DNA from: Chromatiales bacterium
GTDB taxonomy: Bacteria; Pseudomonadota; Gammaproteobacteria; JAJPIJ01
Direction of reading: 5' to 3'
DNA: 64,000 nucleotides
Assembly (NCBI GenBank): GCA_052388435.1
Contig: JBQTIC010000019.1
Span: 13,769-77,768, forward strand
The translations under genes were made by a program, and so were the position numbers. Below are positions 7,479 through 44,007 of this stretch, piece after piece. Within the stretch, counting starts at the first letter, position 1, and each line of letters begins with the position of its first letter. The notes beneath the pieces are model-generated. The model did no database searches, had not been told where the DNA came from, and worked only from the letters and a program-made list of their open reading frames with translations.

Positions 7479-7484
7479 CGCCTG

Positions 7485-9776
7485 CTACGTGCCGGTCGCG
7501 CGCGCCACGGAGGCACCGGTGGCCGCCGGCGCTGCACGTCCCTGCTCCAGCATCCGTGCGTGGCAGGCATACGCCGCCTCGATGAAGAGCTGCGCCTCCT
7601 CCAGCAGTCGCCGCGCTTTCTCGTCGCTGAAGTCGCGCGCCGTGTCCTCATGGCGCTTGAAGAGGTACTCGGCGAATTTACCGCCCGCGTACTGGTCGTG
7701 GAAGAGTCGGGTATCGTGGAAGCGTCGGCGGAACTCTGCGACGAGGGTGTCTGGATTATCCCTGATGTCCTGGCCTTGCTGGCGGACCAGCGCCTTGGCG
7801 GCTTCCAGCATCGCCGCATAGGCGGTCTCGTCGGCTCTCCGATGGTCTTTCTCGCGGAGCAGGAGCTGAGCTTCGAAGCACAGACGCTCCGCCGACTGCA
7901 GATCGAACTCGATCCGGGAGACCACCTCGCCGGCGCACTCACCCGTGCCAATGTCACTTACAGTGAATTCGCGCGGATCACGCCAGTCGGAGTAGTACGA
8001 GCGGTCATCCTCGTACGGAGGGACTGTTGCGAACTCGTCGACGAGCGCCTTCACCGCCTTCGGTCCGATGCGCTGGACGTAGTCGCGGAAGGGCTCGCCG
8101 TTCTGCCGTTTTTCCAGATACCGGGCGACAATGCAGTCGACGAAATCGGGGACCCGTTTCGAGGGCACGGCGCCAATCGTATCGCCGTAAGTGCCCGCGT
8201 TTTCACTCCACTGTCCACCCAGCAGGACGCGGAAGTGTGGCACTGTGGTCTTGCCGACCTTGCGGCTCACTCCATAGAAGCCGAGGTCCGCGACCTGGTG
8301 CTGGCCGCAGGCATTGAAGCAGCCGCTTATCTTGATGTGCAGGCGCTGCACGGCGCGGTCGAGCTGCTGGTAGCGCACTGCCAGCCGCTCGCGCAGCACT
8401 GCCGCGAGGCCGCGTGAGGAGGCAATGCCGAGCTTACAGGTATCCGTTCCCGGGCAGGCTGTGATGTCCAGGATGGTGCCGGCACCCGGCTCGCTCAGAC
8501 CGATGCGCTGCAGGTCCCGATACAGGGCCGGAAGGTCTGCCTCTGGCACCCAGCGCAGCACGATGTTCTGCTCCACGGTCGTGCGTACGTTGTCGCCCGC
8601 GTAGCGGCGCGCGATGTCGGCGAGTTGGCGCGTCTGCCAGGAGCTGATGTCGCCAATCGGCAGTGTCACCGTCGCCACCGCATAGCCGGGCTGGCGCTGG
8701 GGATACATGTTGGTGGCGCGCCAGGCCTCAAATGCGGTATCCGGACTCCCGATGTCCAGCTTGTTGGATGGCGGCCGGAGCGGCTTTTCGGCGAAGTCCG
8801 GGACATCCTTGAGGAAGGCTGTCCACGCATCGTCGTGTGAGAGGTGCTTCCGCTCCTCAAGCACCAACTCGCGGAACTTGTCAATGCCGAGCTTCTCGAT
8901 CAGGAACTTGATGCGTGCGCGCCCCCGGTTGCGCTTTTCCCCCAGGCGGGCATAGACGCGCGAGACGGCCTGCGCGAGCGGCAGGATCTCCTCCTGGGGG
9001 ACGAAGTCGGCGAAGAGCTTGGATTTATAAGGGACTGCTCCGAGGCCGCCGCCCACGTACATCTCGAAGCCGCGGCGCTCCGTGCCGTCCTCAACGCGAG
9101 TGCGGGCGATGAACCCTATGTCGTGGATGGCCGTCAGCGCGCAGGCTTCGTTTCCGCAGCCCGAGAAGGCGATCTTGAACTTGCGCCCGAAGTCCTGCGT
9201 GTCCGGATGCCCCAGCAGGAAGTAGGCGCAGGCCTTCGCATAGGGTGTGACGTCAAAGGTCTCGGTGTGGCACACCCCGGCATAGGGACAGGCCGTGACG
9301 TTGCGGATGGCATTACCACAGGCTTCGCGAGTGGTGATCCCGACCGCCGCAAGGCGGCGCATGAGGTCGGGCGTGTCGTCGATGTGGATATAGTGGAGCT
9401 GGATGTCCTGACGGGTGGTCACATGGCAGATGGCGTCTGAGTACTCCTCCGCAACATCCGCCAGTACGTCCATCTGCTCCGGTGTGAGCCCGCCAAAGGG
9501 GATCTTGATGCGCTGCATGCCAGGCGCGTCCCAAAGGGTGTCCGAACCCTTGGTCAGCTCCGCGGGGACGCGCAGCGCGCGCCGCGCAACGCCGTCGTGG
9601 CGCTGCCCGTTGTCGTAGCGCTGGCCGTAGACGCCGCGGCGCAGGCGGGTTTCCGCGAACAGCTTGTCCTCGACCTGGCCCCTGCGCTTCAGCTCAAGCT
9701 GGGTCTCATAGACGTCGATCTCCCGCGCTAGAGCAGGAGCCATCTTGTCCGCCAGCCGCTCTTTCCAAGTAATCAC
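7485..9776 (-). CDS. ferredoxin-dependent nitrite/sulfite reductase (NirA/Sir type) with about 190-aa C-terminal extension
   Basis: 763 aa; two NIR_SIR repeats; siroheme/4Fe-4S cysteines TACPGTDTC...SGCFNACG. The C-terminal about 190 aa beyond the reductase core are helical with no recognised domain. Confidence 0.8.
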   Translation of the reverse strand: MITWKERLADKMAPALAREIDVYETQLELKRRGQVEDKLFAETRLRRGVYGQRYDNGQRHDGVARRALRVPAELTKGSDTLWDAPGMQRIKIPFGGLTPEQMDVLADVAEEYSDAICHVTTRQDIQLHYIHIDDTPDLMRRLAAVGITTREACGNAIRNVTACPYAGVCHTETFDVTPYAKACAYFLLGHPDTQDFGRKFKIAFSGCGNEACALTAIHDIGFIARTRVEDGTERRGFEMYVGGGLGAVPYKSKLFADFVPQEEILPLAQAVSRVYARLGEKRNRGRARIKFLIEKLGIDKFRELVLEERKHLSHDDAWTAFLKDVPDFAEKPLRPPSNKLDIGSPDTAFEAWRATNMYPQRQPGYAVATVTLPIGDISSWQTRQLADIARRYAGDNVRTTVEQNIVLRWVPEADLPALYRDLQRIGLSEPGAGTILDITACPGTDTCKLGIASSRGLAAVLRERLAVRYQQLDRAVQRLHIKISGCFNACGQHQVADLGFYGVSRKVGKTTVPHFRVLLGGQWSENAGTYGDTIGAVPSKRVPDFVDCIVARYLEKRQNGEPFRDYVQRIGPKAVKALVDEFATVPPYEDDRSYYSDWRDPREFTVSDIGTGECAGEVVSRIEFDLQSAERLCFEAQLLLREKDHRRADETAYAAMLEAAKALVRQQGQDIRDNPDTLVAEFRRRFHDTRLFHDQYAGGKFAEYLFKRHEDTARDFSDEKARRLLEEAQLFIEAAYACHARMLEQGRAAPAATGASVARATGT

Positions 9777-34608: not shown

Positions 34609-36144
34609 TTATCTGTCCACGCCGACGGTCGCACGGTGCTTGACGGCGAAATCCTCTTCGGGTGAATACACCAGTGTCTTGCGACCGTATACGGCGAAGT
34701 ACATGATCCCGCACGAGTACCAGATAGCGGTACCGATCACGGCCTGCCGGTAAACCGGATCCTGCAACTGCATGTAAAGGGTCACCGCAGCGATGATGAG
34801 AGTAACCAGCGCGCCAATCCTGCCGAGCGGGCTCACATACGGCCGTTCGATGTTGGGGAAATTGTTCTTGAGCAGGATGTAGGCCAGTGCCTGCATGAAG
34901 TAGGAAATCATGGCACCGAAGACCGCCATGTTGAGCAGGGTGCCGCCGATGATCGCCCCGCTCTCAGCTCCCTTCCAGTAATAGATCACCAGCATCAGCA
35001 CGAACCCCATCACCGCGCCGGTAATGAGCGCCACGTGCGGAACCTTGTGGCGGCCATGGGTGATGGAGAGCCAGTGCGGGAAATACCCGGCGCGCGACAG
35101 CGAGTAGATCTGACGCCCGAAGGCAAAGATGATGGTGTGAAAGCTTGCAATCAACCCGACGACCGCGATCAACGACAACAGATTCGCTGCCTCGCGACCG
35201 TAGATGGCACGGAAACCGTCCAGGATCGGCTCACCGGACCCACCGAGGTAGAAAGCGCCGGTCTTACTCCCGTCCTCGGCTTGAACGCCAATGCCGGTGT
35301 TGAGAAACAGCACCAGGAACGCGCAGACGAGCAGTGTCGCAATTCCGTAAAGCAGGCCCTTGGGCATGTCGCGTTTGGGATCGTGCGTTTCCTCCGCCGC
35401 CAGCGGCAATTCCTCAATGGCCAGGAAAAACCACACAGCAAAGGGTAAAGCGGCCAGCACTCCGTACCAACCGAACGGCATGAACGGACCGTTGCCTTCG
35501 GGCAGTTCGACCGCTGCACCGTCCGCACCCACGCCGATGTTGAGCGCCCAGCGCGAAAAGTCAAAGTGCGGGATTGCGCTCACCCAGAAGATCGCGAGGA
35601 CTGCCAGTGCCAGCACCGTGACCAGCACCGAGACACGGAACGACAACTCCACGCCAAGCACATTGAGGCCGACGAAGACCAGGTAGCCGAGAGCCCACCA
35701 CACCGGCGCAAAACCGGGCGACGTCTCGAATATGCTGCCGAGGTAGGAGCCAGCAAAGAATATGATGACTGCGGGGGTGACGACGTACTCGATGTTTTCC
35801 GCGAGGCCGGTGACAAATCCACCCCACGGACCCATGGCCGTGCGCGCAAAGGAGTAGGCGCCACCGGTGTGGGGAAGCGCGGGGGACATCTCCGCTATGC
35901 TGTAGCAAAGACCCACGTACATGATGCCGATGAGGACGGTGGCCCAGAACAGGCCGCCGAACCCCCCTGGCGCAAGGCCGAGATTCCAACCAGAGAACTC
36001 GCCCGAGATGACCGCGCCGACGCCGAGCGCCCAGAGCGACCACACGCGGGCGTGTTTCCTCAGCTCGCGTTTCGAGAAATATTCCCGTCCCGCCTCGTGA
36101 TATTCAACAGTTCCAACTTTTTTTTTCGGCACTGTTGCCATGGT
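34609..36144 (-). CDS. APC-superfamily amino-acid permease, ethanolamine permease (Eat)-like; start placed at MATVPKKK
   Basis: 12 predicted TM segments; N-terminal WSLWALGVGAVISGEFSGWNLG block typical of ethanolamine permeases. Confidence 0.8.
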   Translation of the reverse strand, partial: TMATVPKKKVGTVEYHEAGREYFSKRELRKHARVWSLWALGVGAVISGEFSGWNLGLAPGGFGGLFWATVLIGIMYVGLCYSIAEMSPALPHTGGAYSFARTAMGPWGGFVTGLAENIEYVVTPAVIIFFAGSYLGSIFETSPGFAPVWWALGYLVFVGLNVLGVELSFRVSVLVTVLALAVLAIFWVSAIPHFDFSRWALNIGVGADGAAVELPEGNGPFMPFGWYGVLAALPFAVWFFLAIEELPLAAEETHDPKRDMPKGLLYGIATLLVCAFLVLFLNTGIGVQAEDGSKTGAFYLGGSGEPILDGFRAIYGREAANLLSLIAVVGLIASFHTIIFAFGRQIYSLSRAGYFPHWLSITHGRHKVPHVALITGAVMGFVLMLVIYYWKGAESGAIIGGTLLNMAVFGAMISYFMQALAYILLKNNFPNIERPYVSPLGRIGALVTLIIAAVTLYMQLQDPVYRQAVIGTAIWYSCGIMYFAVYGRKTLVYSPEEDFAVKHRATVGVDR

Positions 36145-39490: not shown

Positions 39491-39766
39491 CTAACGCCGG
39501 CCGCGCGCGGCCACTGGCACGACTTTGATACGCCCGTCGGGCATGAGCACCCTGACCAGATAAACCGGCTGACCTCCGCTGTCGCCCCAGTCGACGCCCA
39601 GCACCCGGCCGCCGGTGCTCGCGCGGGCGACGGCCGCCGCCTGATCCGGGCTCGTTGCGGCCTGCGCAACCTGCACCGCTGCCGCTCCGGCATCAGGGGG
39701 ATGGCCGGCGCTCAGGCCGAGGGGAGCCTCGAGCAGGCCCGCTATCAAAAGAATGCGACTCACCAT
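39491..39766 (-). CDS. PepSY-domain periplasmic protein
   Basis: Signal peptide plus PepSY-like YLVRVLMPDGRIKVV block; immediately upstream of the response regulator and kinase. Confidence 0.55.
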   Translation of the reverse strand: MVSRILLIAGLLEAPLGLSAGHPPDAGAAAVQVAQAATSPDQAAAVARASTGGRVLGVDWGDSGGQPVYLVRVLMPDGRIKVVPVAARGRR

Positions 39767-39818: not shown

Positions 39819-40649
39819 TCACGTGGCCGGTGGGAGCAACGGCCTGTCATGCGTGAGGGAGGGTATCATCTGGCGCGCATCCTCGACGCGGTTCGCATCG
39901 ATCTCGGCGATAACAAAACCGGGGTCATCGCCGCCCTGGGCCAGCACTGTGCCCCAAGGATCGACGATGAGCGAGTGCCCGAACGTGGCGCGTCCCCAAC
40001 TGCGCCGGCCGCACTGGCCCGGGGCAAAAACGAAGCTTCCCGTCTCTATCGCCCGTGCCCGCACCAGGACATGCCAGTGCGCCTGCCCTGTCGTGCGGGT
40101 AAACGCCGCGGGAATCGTGAGATAGGATGCTCCTGACTGCGCCAGCAGGCGATAGAGATAGGCGAAGCGGACGTCGTAACAGATACTCATCCCCAGCTTG
40201 CCCCATGGCGTCTCTGCCACCACTGCCTGATTGCCCGGTTCCACCGCCTGCGACTCGCGGTAGCTCTCGCCCCCTTTCAGGCTGACATCGAAGAGGTGCG
40301 CCTTGTTGTAAAAGGCGACAATGTTGCCGGCGTTGTCGAGCAGGTAGGAGCGGTTGTTCACGCGGCCGGAGGGGACCCGGACCGCCAGCGAGCCGAGCAG
40401 GATCCAGACGTTCAACTCGCGCGCCAGCTGCCGGAATGCCGTCAGTGCCGCATGCTCTTCCTCCGCTGGCGCCACCCGCAGCAGTTCCTGGTCGTTCGGC
40501 GCCATGAACGCGAAGTACTCCGGCAGGCAGATGAGCTGCGCTCCGGTGTTCTCCGCCGCGCGCGTCAGTGCCACAGTTTGTTCGATGTTTCTCTCGAGGT
40601 TGTTCTCGGCACAATTCTGCACGCAGGCGACTTTGAATGGCTCGGCCAT
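39819..40649 (-). CDS. carbon-nitrogen hydrolase (nitrilase superfamily), paralog 1; start placed at MAEPFKV
   Basis: E-K-C triad context (CLPEY...AHLFD...MSICYD); AAGGGGA Shine-Dalgarno 5 nt upstream of ATG 40649. Confidence 0.8.
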   Translation of the reverse strand: MAEPFKVACVQNCAENNLERNIEQTVALTRAAENTGAQLICLPEYFAFMAPNDQELLRVAPAEEEHAALTAFRQLARELNVWILLGSLAVRVPSGRVNNRSYLLDNAGNIVAFYNKAHLFDVSLKGGESYRESQAVEPGNQAVVAETPWGKLGMSICYDVRFAYLYRLLAQSGASYLTIPAAFTRTTGQAHWHVLVRARAIETGSFVFAPGQCGRRSWGRATFGHSLIVDPWGTVLAQGGDDPGFVIAEIDANRVEDARQMIPSLTHDRPLLPPAT

Positions 40650-41183
40650 ATCGCTCCCCTTATACAGGACTTTCATCATATACGTTCGCGGCCCGTTTGC
40701 CTCAACGCGCCGGCAACCGACCTGCAATGCGGGCGGGCCTGTGCGCGCCGCAAGGTGGATAGAGACCAAGGCATGTCATGGGAAGCTGGCGACTTACCGG
40801 ACGAGCCAAGGCAGTTGAGCGCGCCATCTATCGACGTCCAGGAGATATTCCACTGCTCCGCTCTGGCGTGTGACGACGCGCAGCGGTGCACGGGCGCCGT
40901 CCTGCGGGCGTGGCGCCGGAACATCGACCTCACGACCCGCCGTCCGGCTCGATTGTCTCGACCGAGACCTGTGTGCCCGCCCCCTGCCGCCGCACAATGC
41001 CGCCAGCTCAAACTTCTGTCACCACAGAGTCCTTCCTTGGGGACGGGAACAGGAGGGCGATGATGACAAAACCGAACTACGAAGCGAGCGCCCCGCCAGC
41101 GGCGGCGCCCATCGGCAGCTTGTCGGCGAGCCAGTCGAGACGGCTCATGCCCGCGTGGTCTCGCGGCGCAGAGACCCGTCTGC

Positions 41184-41663
41184 CTAGTCGAGTTTTCGCG
41201 CTGCGAGCAGGACGCCATCCCCATCGGCGTAAACATAATCACCCGGGGTGAAGGTCACGCCGGCAAAGCTGACCGGAACACCGCGCTCACCGGCGCCGTT
41301 CTTCGCGCTCTTCTTCGGATTAGTGTTGAGCGCCTTTATGCCGATATCGACCTCCCCAATCGTCGCTGAATCGCGGATGCAACCATGAACGATGATACCC
41401 GTCCAACCGTTCTTCTTTGCCAGCACCGCCAGTTGATCGCCGACCATTGCACAGCGCAACGATCCTTCTCCATCCACCACGAGCACCCGTCCGTTGCCAG
41501 GCTCCTCGAGGGCCGTGCGCACCAGCGAATTGTCCTCGAAGGCCTTGACGGTGGCGACAGGTCCGCTGAAACAGCACGCGCCTCCGTAGGAGCGGAACAG
41601 CGGCTCGGCAACCCGGACCTCCCGCTCGTGCGCGTCGTAGATATCGGCAGTGGCAGAAGTCAT
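41184..41663 (-). CDS. rraA: RraA-family protein (RNase E inhibitor / 4-hydroxy-4-methyl-2-oxoglutarate aldolase-like)
   Basis: 159 aa from MTSATADIYDAHE; blocks conserved along the full length, with GD(G/Y) motifs; AGAGGAAA Shine-Dalgarno 6 nt upstream of ATG 41663. Confidence 0.8.
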   Translation of the reverse strand: MTSATADIYDAHEREVRVAEPLFRSYGGACCFSGPVATVKAFEDNSLVRTALEEPGNGRVLVVDGEGSLRCAMVGDQLAVLAKKNGWTGIIVHGCIRDSATIGEVDIGIKALNTNPKKSAKNGAGERGVPVSFAGVTFTPGDYVYADGDGVLLAARKLD

Positions 41664-42566
41664 GGTGTATTTCCTCTTTCTTGCGTCGCCCCTTCCTCTC
41701 CCACACCGTCTCCCGCGAGAAAAAAAGGGGAGCACATGCTCTGACGCCGCGGTGAGACTGGAATAAAATTCAGCGCGCCGGTCCGCAATCAAATCATTGC
41801 GCGCAGTGATGGTCTTGTTGCGTGCCAAAGCCAGGTCTATCTCCATAACGAACAGCGATGCACGTTGCGCTGGCGCCTGACTCAACACCTTGCCGCCGGG
41901 CGCGACGATCTGGCTGCGCCCCGTGAAGCGTAGTTCGCCGTGCGGACGCCTCTCCACCCCGTAGCGGTTGGTCGTAACGGCGTAAACCTTGTTTTCGAGG
42001 CAGCGCGTGCGCATCGTCTCCTGGCAATAATGCAGCACGAGGTTACTGGGGTGACACAGCACGTCGGCTCCCTGCAAGGCGAGGCTGCGCGCCACCTCCG
42101 GGAACGCCCAGTCGAAGCACACCATCATGCCGACGTGCGCGCCGCGCACTTCCCGTACCGCGAGCGGCGTGTCGCCCGGATCAAAGCATGCCTTCTCGGT
42201 GTTAAACAGATGCAGCTTGCGATAGACATGCATGAGCCCCTGCGGCCCGATGAGCAGCGCGCTGTTGAACACTTTGTCGTGCCTGCGCTCGGCGAAGCCC
42301 GTGACGAGGAGGAAATCGCGTTCCCGGCAAAGCGCGACGAGAGTAGCCACGGTCGTGGACATGGACGGATCCTCTGCCAGCGCCAGCGCCTCGTCGCGAT
42401 TAGCGAAGTAGTAGCCGGTAAAGGCGAGTTCGGGCAAGACCACAATGTCGGCGCGAACATCGTTGAGGGCACCCAACACTCGCTTCAGGTTGCGCCGGAC
42501 GTTGCCGAACAACGGCCGGAACTGGTAGTAGCCAACGCGCAGCAAGCCTGTTCCCTCTCTCCCCAA
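41664..42566 (-). CDS. carbon-nitrogen hydrolase paralog 2, reading through into rraA with no in-frame stop (fusion, or frameshift artefact at an A7/T7 run)
   Basis: Nitrilase-family blocks through RRAEFY (a typical C-terminal motif). A T7 homopolymer lies at 41720-41726 (coding strand). In an alternative frame, a TGA would overlap the rraA ATG. Confidence 0.7.
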
Positions 42567-42642: not shown

Positions 42643-44007
42643 TTACTCCTTCTTCTTTCTTGGACGTTGCCAGCCTTCGATGGTGTGCTGGCGTACGCGG
42701 CTGATCGTCAGTTTGCCCTGCGGCGCGTCGTGCGTGAGGGTAGTCCCGGCGCCGAGTGTCGCGCCATCGCCGACCTTCACGGGCGCCACCAACTGGCAAT
42801 CGGAGCCGATGAAGACATCGTCGCCGATGACGGTCTTGTGCTTGTTGGCACCGTCGTAATTGCAGGTGATGGTGCCGGCGCCGATGTTGACGTTTGTGCC
42901 TACCTCAGAATCGCCGACATAGCTCAGGTGATTGATCTTCGATCCCTGAGCCACCGTGCTCTTCTTGATCTCGACAAAATTGCCCACATGCACATCCTCG
43001 CCGAGCACCGTTTCCGGCCGTATCCGCGAGTAGGGACCAACGCGGGCGCCGCGGCCGATCGTGGCGTCCTCGATGACGCAGTTGGCGAGCACGCTGGCGT
43101 CATCTTCGACCGTCACATTGCGCAGAACATTGTTCGGCCCGATGTGCGCGCGGCTGCCGATCCGCACCCGGCCTTCGAGCACCACGTTGACATCGATGAA
43201 CACATCCTGCCCGATCTCGAGCTCGCCGCGCAGATCGAAGCGCGCCGGGTCTGCGATCGTGACGCCTTGTTTCATGAGGTGTTGGGCCTGTACGAGCTGG
43301 TAATAGCGCTCAAGCTCTGCGAGTTGGGCGCGATCGTTGACACCCATGACCTCGAACACAGACTCGGGGGACACGGTCTTGATTTGCACGCCGTCCTTGA
43401 CCGCGATCTCAATCACATCAGTGAGGTAGTACTCGCCCTGTGCGTTCCTGTTGCTCAGGCGATTCACCCACTTCTTGAGCAGGCGGGCTGCCACCGCCAT
43501 CATCCCCGTGTTCACTTCACGGATCTTGCGCTCGGCGCGGGTAGCGTCCTTCTGTTCGACGATGCGCACAACGTTGCGCTTGGCGTCGCGGACGATGCGG
43601 CCATAGCCCGCGGGGTCGGGGAGTTCGACGGTGAGCAGGCCGAGCGCCTTGGTGCCAGCTTCGACCAGGCGCTCCAGGGTGGAATAGGTGATGAGGGGGA
43701 CATCACCGTACAGCACTAGGACAGTGTCGTTGTGCTTTACCTTCGGCAATGCCTGTTTAACGGCGTGTCCAGTGCCGAGCTGGCGGGCCTGCTCGACCCA
43801 CTCGGCCTTCAGATAGCGCAGGCGCTCCCGCATATTCTCGCCGCCGTGACCGTATACGACATGGACCCGCGACTTGGGAAACCGCATGGCGGCGGTGTAC
43901 ACGTGTTCGAGCAGGGTCCTGCCCGCCAGCGTGTGCAGGACCTTCGGCAACTGCGATTTCATGCGGGTGCCCTGACCCGCGGCGAGGATGATGACACTTA
44001 GCGCCAT
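42643..44007 (-). CDS. glmU: bifunctional UDP-N-acetylglucosamine pyrophosphorylase / glucosamine-1-phosphate acetyltransferase
   Basis: N-terminal LAAGQGTRM nucleotidyltransferase motif and C-terminal left-handed beta-helix hexapeptide repeats; 454 aa. Confidence 0.95.
   Translation of the reverse strand: MALSVIILAAGQGTRMKSQLPKVLHTLAGRTLLEHVYTAAMRFPKSRVHVVYGHGGENMRERLRYLKAEWVEQARQLGTGHAVKQALPKVKHNDTVLVLYGDVPLITYSTLERLVEAGTKALGLLTVELPDPAGYGRIVRDAKRNVVRIVEQKDATRAERKIREVNTGMMAVAARLLKKWVNRLSNRNAQGEYYLTDVIEIAVKDGVQIKTVSPESVFEVMGVNDRAQLAELERYYQLVQAQHLMKQGVTIADPARFDLRGELEIGQDVFIDVNVVLEGRVRIGSRAHIGPNNVLRNVTVEDDASVLANCVIEDATIGRGARVGPYSRIRPETVLGEDVHVGNFVEIKKSTVAQGSKINHLSYVGDSEVGTNVNIGAGTITCNYDGANKHKTVIGDDVFIGSDCQLVAPVKVGDGATLGAGTTLTHDAPQGKLTISRVRQHTIEGWQRPRKKKE

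Follow-up and report, generated by a model that had tools for sequence, protein, structure and literature searches.

An apparent stop-loss fusion of a carbon-nitrogen hydrolase gene and rraA in a Chromatiales metagenome-assembled genome

Here, we analyzed a 64,000-nt stretch of the Chromatiales bacterium metagenome-assembled genome (MAG) GCA_052388435.1 (contig JBQTIC010000019.1; the whole stretch is called the window below, and all positions count from its first letter), in which a nitrilase-family gene, termed nit, reads without a stop codon into a complete rraA gene. On the minus strand, a single unbroken open reading frame (ORF) runs from 42566 to 41184 and encodes 460 aa when counted from the first TTG. 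The likely start is the TTG at 42545, which gives 453 aa and agrees both with the N-termini of homologues (‘MLRVGYYQF’) and with the GenBank model. An original prediction made from the letters of the window had described the second of two hydrolase genes as lacking a stop and continuing in a single frame into a complete RraA protein with its own Shine-Dalgarno sequence. The ORF and Pfam analyses confirm this observation, while its overall interpretation is partly supported. The deposited 453-aa protein is best treated as nit and rraA joined through a lost stop codon, and the locus comprises the following features.

41184–42545, minus strand: the deposited fused ORF of 453 aa, entered in GenBank as MGQ0656918.1 under the name ‘ribonuclease E activity regulator RraA’ (MAG Chromatiales bacterium)
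41745–42545, minus strand: nit part, a PH0642/PaNit-type carbon-nitrogen (C-N) hydrolase of 267 codons (PF00795, PDB matches, catalytic triad)
41742–41744, minus strand: TCA (Ser) at the ancestral nit stop position (alignment with the stops of relatives)
41664–41744, minus strand: linker of 81 nt and 27 codons, SEHVLPFFSRGRRCGRGRGDARKRKYT, apparently the former nit-rraA intergenic spacer (codon usage, Shine-Dalgarno sequence, hairpin)
41720–41726, minus strand: T7 run (A7 on the plus strand), which makes up the 5' arm of the hairpin below (sequence, predicted fold)
41689–41730, minus strand: predicted RNA hairpin of 42 nt, with 17 bp including G-U pairs and an 8-nt loop, specific to the spacer of this genome
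41670–41677, minus strand: Shine-Dalgarno sequence AGAGGAAA of rraA, read from the sequence, with purine-rich counterparts at the equivalent place in relatives
41184–41663, minus strand: rraA part, a complete RraA-like protein of 159 aa with GD-X20-RD (full PF03737 profile, NF006875)

Both halves of the fused ORF are recognized by Pfam, with CN_hydrolase (PF00795) at residues 14–249 (E 1e-40, 139.9 bits against a curated cutoff of 23.2) and RraA-like (PF03737) at residues 306–453 (E 5e-46, 157 bits, profile positions 1–151 of 152). The hydrolase carries the Glu-Lys-Cys catalytic triad (E46 in LPEL, K117 in YRKLHLF and C150 in CFDW, in the 460-aa numbering), the columns of which are invariant in the alignment of homologues, and residues 1–261 match PDB entries 1J31 (PH0642) and 3IVZ (PaNit) with an E of about 1e-62. 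With the archaeal nitrilase equivalog model NF040852 it scores 237.5 bits, below the cutoff of 500 bits, and we would call it nitrilase-related rather than a true nitrilase. The RraA half begins at an internal ATG (41663–41661, minus strand). Its match to NF006875 (222.3 bits, cutoff 136) starts at profile position 2, on the residue that follows this internal Met.

As a reference for the gene order, we used 53 syntenic loci from other Gammaproteobacteria, taken from GTDB species genomes and JGI metagenomes (loci L001–L141), in which nit is followed directly by rraA on the same strand. The two genes are always co-oriented, the spacer between them ranges from -4 to 132 nt, and the junction has a stop codon in 53/53 cases (TAA in 33, TGA in 13 and TAG in 7). 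This comparison of orthologous loci, which had been proposed along with the original prediction, finds the genes separate throughout. Locus L093 was flagged by the script as a second fusion because tblastn aligned across the stop; its TAG is present, and the candidate was rejected. In the nearest relative (L001/L002), Nit has 267 aa and 80% aa identity to the window protein, and rraA is a separate gene. The window and L001/L002 have in common the order atp operon, glmU, nit, rraA, nit2, a 91-aa ORF, response regulator and histidine kinase. Across the 53 loci, glmU lies directly upstream in most and nit2 downstream in about 17. We conclude that glmU-nit-rraA(-nit2) is a conserved cluster of a gammaproteobacterial clade. 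Around the Nit homologues of other groups (Desulfobacterales, Calditrichia, KSB1 and others), no rraA neighbor was found. Downstream of glmU, nit and rraA thus form a tightly conserved pair that a Nit1/Nit2-like amidase often follows, and this genomic context offers a clue to what RraA-like proteins with the aldolase-type Arg-Asp motif do. In a literature search, no paper contained RraA together with ‘carbon-nitrogen hydrolase’.

Where the stop was lost follows from the alignment with the closest relatives. Counted without gaps from the conserved (F/Y)Y, the five closest relatives have their nit stops at the very codon that reads TCA in the window (41744–41742), namely TAA in L001/L002 and TAG in L003, L012, L083 and L093. 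Ended at this TCA, nit has 267 aa, equal to the nearest orthologues P0002 and P0003, and six residues stand between (F/Y)Y and the TCA, where the tails across the 53 loci measure 1–14 aa. The TCA differs from the TAA of the nearest relative by one substitution, A to C at position 41743 of the minus strand (T to G on the plus strand). It lies 18 nt upstream of the T7 run, which means that the stop is already gone before the homopolymer is reached, and the homopolymer is probably not the cause of the fusion. Such an event is easy to reach, given that 14/53 related loci are one stop-loss short of an in-frame fusion.

We then scored the linker by a codon-usage log-likelihood ratio (LLR), with the 22 long genes of the window as reference. 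In the fusion frame, the linker reaches -0.59 per codon, which is below all 1209 sampled in-frame gene segments of 27 codons (mean +0.41, standard deviation (SD) 0.21) and ~4.7 SD under their mean, and the LLR is negative in all three frames. Five of the seven Arg codons of the linker are AGA or AGG, compared with 8.7% in the genes of the window. This non-coding codon usage, the dominance of AGA/AGG, the RNA hairpin and the rraA ribosome-binding site inside it make the linker look like a former intergenic spacer. Its richness in Arg, Gly and Lys is what translation of a purine-rich ribosome-binding region would give. In ten of the related loci (L015, L025, L096, L099, L100, L103, L105, L106, L112 and L132), Nit ends in tails such as KKGK, RKRKPA or RRKPRRK that read across the purine-rich rraA Shine-Dalgarno sequence, and these basic tails are a composition effect, not a functional basic motif.

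The spacer is ~36 nt longer than in the closest relatives, and the extra nucleotides form the 42-nt hairpin, a region missing in the spacers of the relatives. As a whole, the spacer does not fold significantly better than its shuffles (z -1.46); only the 42-nt core is significant. No DNA-level inverted repeat was found at the hairpin, which makes it specific to the sense transcript, and a consensus scan found no intrinsic terminator in the nit-rraA spacer. Candidate roles of the hairpin are an intercistronic stabilizer, a processing site or a translational decoupler. Other structured inserts occur at the same place, namely long palindromes in the 86-nt spacers of L038 and L019/L097. The T7 run in the 5' arm is one of only three homopolymers of at least 7 nt in the 64-kb window; it is T5 in L093 and absent from L001, L003, L012 and L083. 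Programmed frameshifting at this run was weighed from the sequence alone and rejected: the run begins on a codon boundary after CCC, does not form the canonical X XXY YYZ, and a -1 shift enters a frame without a nearby stop.

Next, we looked for the domain combination in large protein collections. In a word-indexed search of 5.8 billion proteins, the sole two-domain match among the matches listed is MGQ0656918.1 itself, and the other 119 listed are stand-alone Nit proteins of 261–288 aa. An exhaustive phmmer search covered 1.84 billion cluster representatives; the 150 best include no Nit+RraA protein, and their floor of 176 bits is one that a fusion of modest identity in both halves should exceed. 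The long database matches considered as candidates carry unrelated domains next to Nit, and P0139 consists of RraA alone. The expectation of the original prediction that a Nit-RraA fusion would be unusual is borne out by these searches and by the 0/53 fused syntenic loci, and within the same scopes the search for natural fusions gave no widespread conserved one. With no recurrence in independent genomes and a linker of composition that is not coding-like, the Nit-RraA combination was not found elsewhere and shows no sign of an established architecture. It is a one-off event or a base-call error, not a new conserved enzyme. For annotation, no new bifunctional family should be built on MGQ0656918.1.

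The explanation we favor, at a probability of about 0.5, is that loss of the nit stop recently led to read-through into rraA and so fused the two genes within the conserved glmU-nit-rraA cluster. In the ancestral state, the two genes would have been separate, adjacent and co-oriented. A substitution at 41743 would then have turned the nit stop TAA into TCA, and the following 78 nt of spacer would happen to be free of in-frame stops and in phase with rraA. Ribosomes translating nit would run on through the spacer, the hairpin and the rraA Shine-Dalgarno sequence and produce a 453-aa Nit-linker-RraA chimera, and free RraA would presumably still be made to some extent from the retained Shine-Dalgarno sequence and ATG. 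Whether allele or error, the fusion is young and unselected, since its linker lacks coding character and no other genome was found to carry it. We lean slightly towards the deposited base being the true allele rather than a consensus error, because the lengths of the neighboring genes match those in L001 (window/L001: glmU 454/455, nit2 276/276, the 91-aa ORF 91/91, response regulator 228/231, histidine kinase 453/453) and no fragmented long ORFs were seen in the ORF map of the window.

Several points weigh against a real stop-loss allele. MGQ0656918.1 forms a singleton cluster and comes from one 109-kb contig of a MAG. Protein word search, GTDB species genomes, JGI metagenomes and exact-sequence look-ups gave no relative closer than 80% aa identity, so that the substitution is read across a large divergence and its polarization by a sister strain is impossible. 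Of the hairpin, it has to be said that its free energy of -24.1 kcal/mol corresponds to a z of -3.9, with 1/200 shuffles as stable, and that this z is optimistic because the segment was picked after the fold had been seen. The C at minus-strand position 41743 may also be a miscall in the consensus or the assembly, or a minor variant of the population that was captured in the MAG. The organism itself would then have TAA, a Nit of 267 aa and a separate RraA, with a structured spacer of 81 nt between the two genes. We hold this to be the less probable account, yet it has clear points in its favor: the fusion occurs once, on a single MAG contig, restoring one base gives the exact gene model of the nearest relatives, and the linker is fully non-coding in character. 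It is opposed by neighboring genes of orthologue-like length in a local consensus that looks clean; as a matter of general knowledge, substitution miscalls at one given stop codon are also rare in short-read consensus sequences.

The original prediction had offered a different error, a homopolymer indel that fused two coupled genes. With a true tract of T6, nit would end at a TGA overlapping the rraA ATG, and the fusion would be an indel artefact. Homopolymers are a classic error site of long-read assemblies, one T fewer does create the overlapping TGA, and nit-rraA ATGA overlaps exist in six related loci (L015, L103, L105, L107, L112 and L132). Nevertheless, we consider this account improbable, and an indel is not the best fit to the locus: upstream of the tract, a sense codon already occupies the place of the orthologous stop, and the T6 model would give nit a tail of 33 aa, compared with a maximum of 14 aa in the 53 loci. 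The part of this tail specific to T6 is non-coding-like as well, with an LLR of -0.28 per codon against the gene mean of +0.41 (SD 0.21), and no frameshifted neighbors are visible. Taken as evidence for coupling, the ATGA loses its weight, in that it arises from an A-initial second rraA codon and ATGACC is also present in L003, L012, L083 and L093, relatives whose nit stops 38–40 nt upstream. The claim that either T8 or T6 would restore a stop holds for T6 and fails for T8, which meets no stop until 41320, about 135 codons on. A one-base correction of the tract in either direction fails to give an orthologue-like gene model.

At the other end lies a genuine, selected bifunctional Nit-RraA enzyme, in which the linker would tether two cooperating activities. 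The adjacency of nit and rraA in 53 loci makes a functional link plausible, both domains are intact with their catalytic residues present, and this Nit subfamily forms other fusions. Against this stand the lack of any second case among the 53 loci, the best 120 word-indexed matches and the best 150 of 1.84 billion representatives, a linker with the worst codon usage of all sampled segments that still contains the Shine-Dalgarno sequence and the 17-bp hairpin, and the 14 loci that are one mutation from fusion without any being fixed. Altogether, such an enzyme is very unlikely. Least credible of all is a phase-variable switch, as also raised by the original prediction, in which T7 would give the fused form, T6 separate coupled genes and T8 a truncated or garbled product: a homopolymer does lie between two reading frames and the three tract lengths do yield three different products, but the idea is without support, as the tract has only 7 nt, is not conserved among the relatives and sits in a hairpin arm of the spacer, and housekeeping metabolic genes downstream of glmU are, as is generally known, not typical contingency loci.

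If the organism truly carries the stop-loss allele that we favor, and if it tolerates or benefits from the chimera, the fusion might serve as Rosetta-stone evidence that a PH0642-type amidase and an RraA-like protein act together, an extension that we regard as doubtful. Were it true, the amidase could, for example, release a 2-oxo-acid for an RraA-like aldolase or decarboxylase to convert, and non-enterobacterial RraA-like proteins would gain a metabolic partner. The conserved adjacency of nit and rraA in the 53 loci is well established; physical or metabolic coupling of this kind is speculation. Enzymes of the PH0642 type form dimers, and RraA proteins form trimers. One may speculate that tethering the two is awkward, in keeping with a fusion that was found nowhere else.

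Further features of the locus surround the fused ORF.

42643–44007, minus strand: glmU, the conserved neighbor upstream of nit-rraA (ORF map, synteny)
40650–41183, no strand: rraA-nit2 gap, 534 nt, non-coding, with a promoter-like TTGAGG-N17-TATAT near nit2
39819–40649, minus strand: nit2, a Nit1/Nit2-like (deaminated-glutathione-amidase-like) C-N hydrolase of 276 aa from the ATG of ‘MAEPFKV’ (PF00795 182.6 bits, NCBIfam)

The description of nit and nit2 as tandem paralogs goes too far. They are not recent duplicates: nit and nit2 belong to different subfamilies and share 26% identity, whereas each is 80–82% identical to its own orthologue in L001, which makes them ancient paralogs. The 534-nt gap between rraA and nit2 and the T7 run in the linker both lie where the original prediction had placed them. 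In relatives, this gap measures 2–446 nt. Neither the gap nor its ORFs gave a Pfam or Rfam match, and only its nit2-proximal part is conserved, as TTGAGGCAA-N-(A)CGTATA(T/C) in the window (40650–40720) and in L001 (about 7480–7526). The nit2 gene looks like a transcription unit of its own, at least in this genome. Beyond nit2, the conserved 91-aa ORF (39491–39766, minus strand; 8409–8684 in L001) has a weak PepSY match (E 0.002); it separates nit2 from a pair of genes for an OmpR-type response regulator and a PhoQ-like histidine kinase, in the same layout in L001/L002. The longest homopolymer of the window lies in an amino-acid permease gene, where A9 on the minus strand (36118–36126) encodes KKK(K) at codons 6–8 from the likely start (MATVPKKKKVG). 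This is a possible slippage site; the L001 orthologue has 510 aa.

With respect to the function of the RraA half, the GD-X20-RD motif (G75, D76, R97 and D98 in RraA numbering) is invariant in 52/52 syntenic RraA proteins. E. coli RraA has Arg-Gln (RQ) where aldolase/decarboxylase-type proteins have Arg-Asp. Mazurkewich and colleagues are said to have described, in 2014, an Arg-Asp metal/substrate-binding pair with an upstream G/D at a spacing of 20 residues. At the level of equivalog models, the rraA part scores 161.5 bits with enterobacterial RraA (TIGR02998, cutoff 241.25) and 172.5 bits with HMG aldolase (NF009134, cutoff 196), and it also stays below the ligK models. On these scores, neither RNase E regulation nor aldolase activity appears assignable. 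According to PMC5065237 (citing Mazurkewich 2014), one of two metal-binding/catalytic motifs is found in most RraA homologues, which are probably aldolases of the class II pyruvate type. Together with the invariant motif, this hints at a metabolic rather than an RNase-E-regulatory role.

Compared with characterized proteins, nit matches PH0642 (1J31) and PaNit of Pyrococcus abyssi (3IVZ), small nitrilase-superfamily enzymes of 262 aa, from end to end and has the Glu-Lys-Cys triad. Unlike these, it falls below the NF040852 cutoff and is linked to rraA and glmU. The rraA part shares the full-length PF03737 profile and the Arg-Asp pair, part of the metal-binding/catalytic motifs of most homologues (PMC5065237), with the RraA/class II pyruvate aldolase-oxaloacetate decarboxylase family (E. 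coli 1Q5X, P. aeruginosa 3C8O, M. tuberculosis Rv3853 1NXJ and P. putida HMG/CHA aldolase 3NOJ); in contrast to enterobacterial RraA and HMG aldolase, it fails both equivalog-level models. In metagenomic proteins, the same Nit subfamily is fused to 5-formyl-THF (5-FTHF) cyclo-ligase, NUDIX, cytidine deaminase or YtxH (P0183, P0229, P0154, P0246 and P0122). Like the window ORF, these combine an N-terminal Nit of ~265 aa with a small domain at the C-terminus. None of them includes RraA, however, and only the fusion with 5-FTHF cyclo-ligase recurs, with members in two distinct clusters at 50% identity; in that case the architecture seems to be established.

Finally, the window ORF can be set beside stop-loss fusions of operon neighbors of the Rosetta-stone type, for which the his gene fusions, covered in a review (PMC10138114), provide an example. 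Common to both are co-oriented conserved neighbors in frame, a spacer-derived linker and downstream start signals that are kept. In contrast to the his-type fusions, the Nit-RraA fusion is a single occurrence with no sign of fixation or selection, and from the consensus sequence alone it looks the same as a single-base consensus error. Apart from the domain pairing, the process is a familiar one, in which operon neighbors are fused by loss of the upstream stop.

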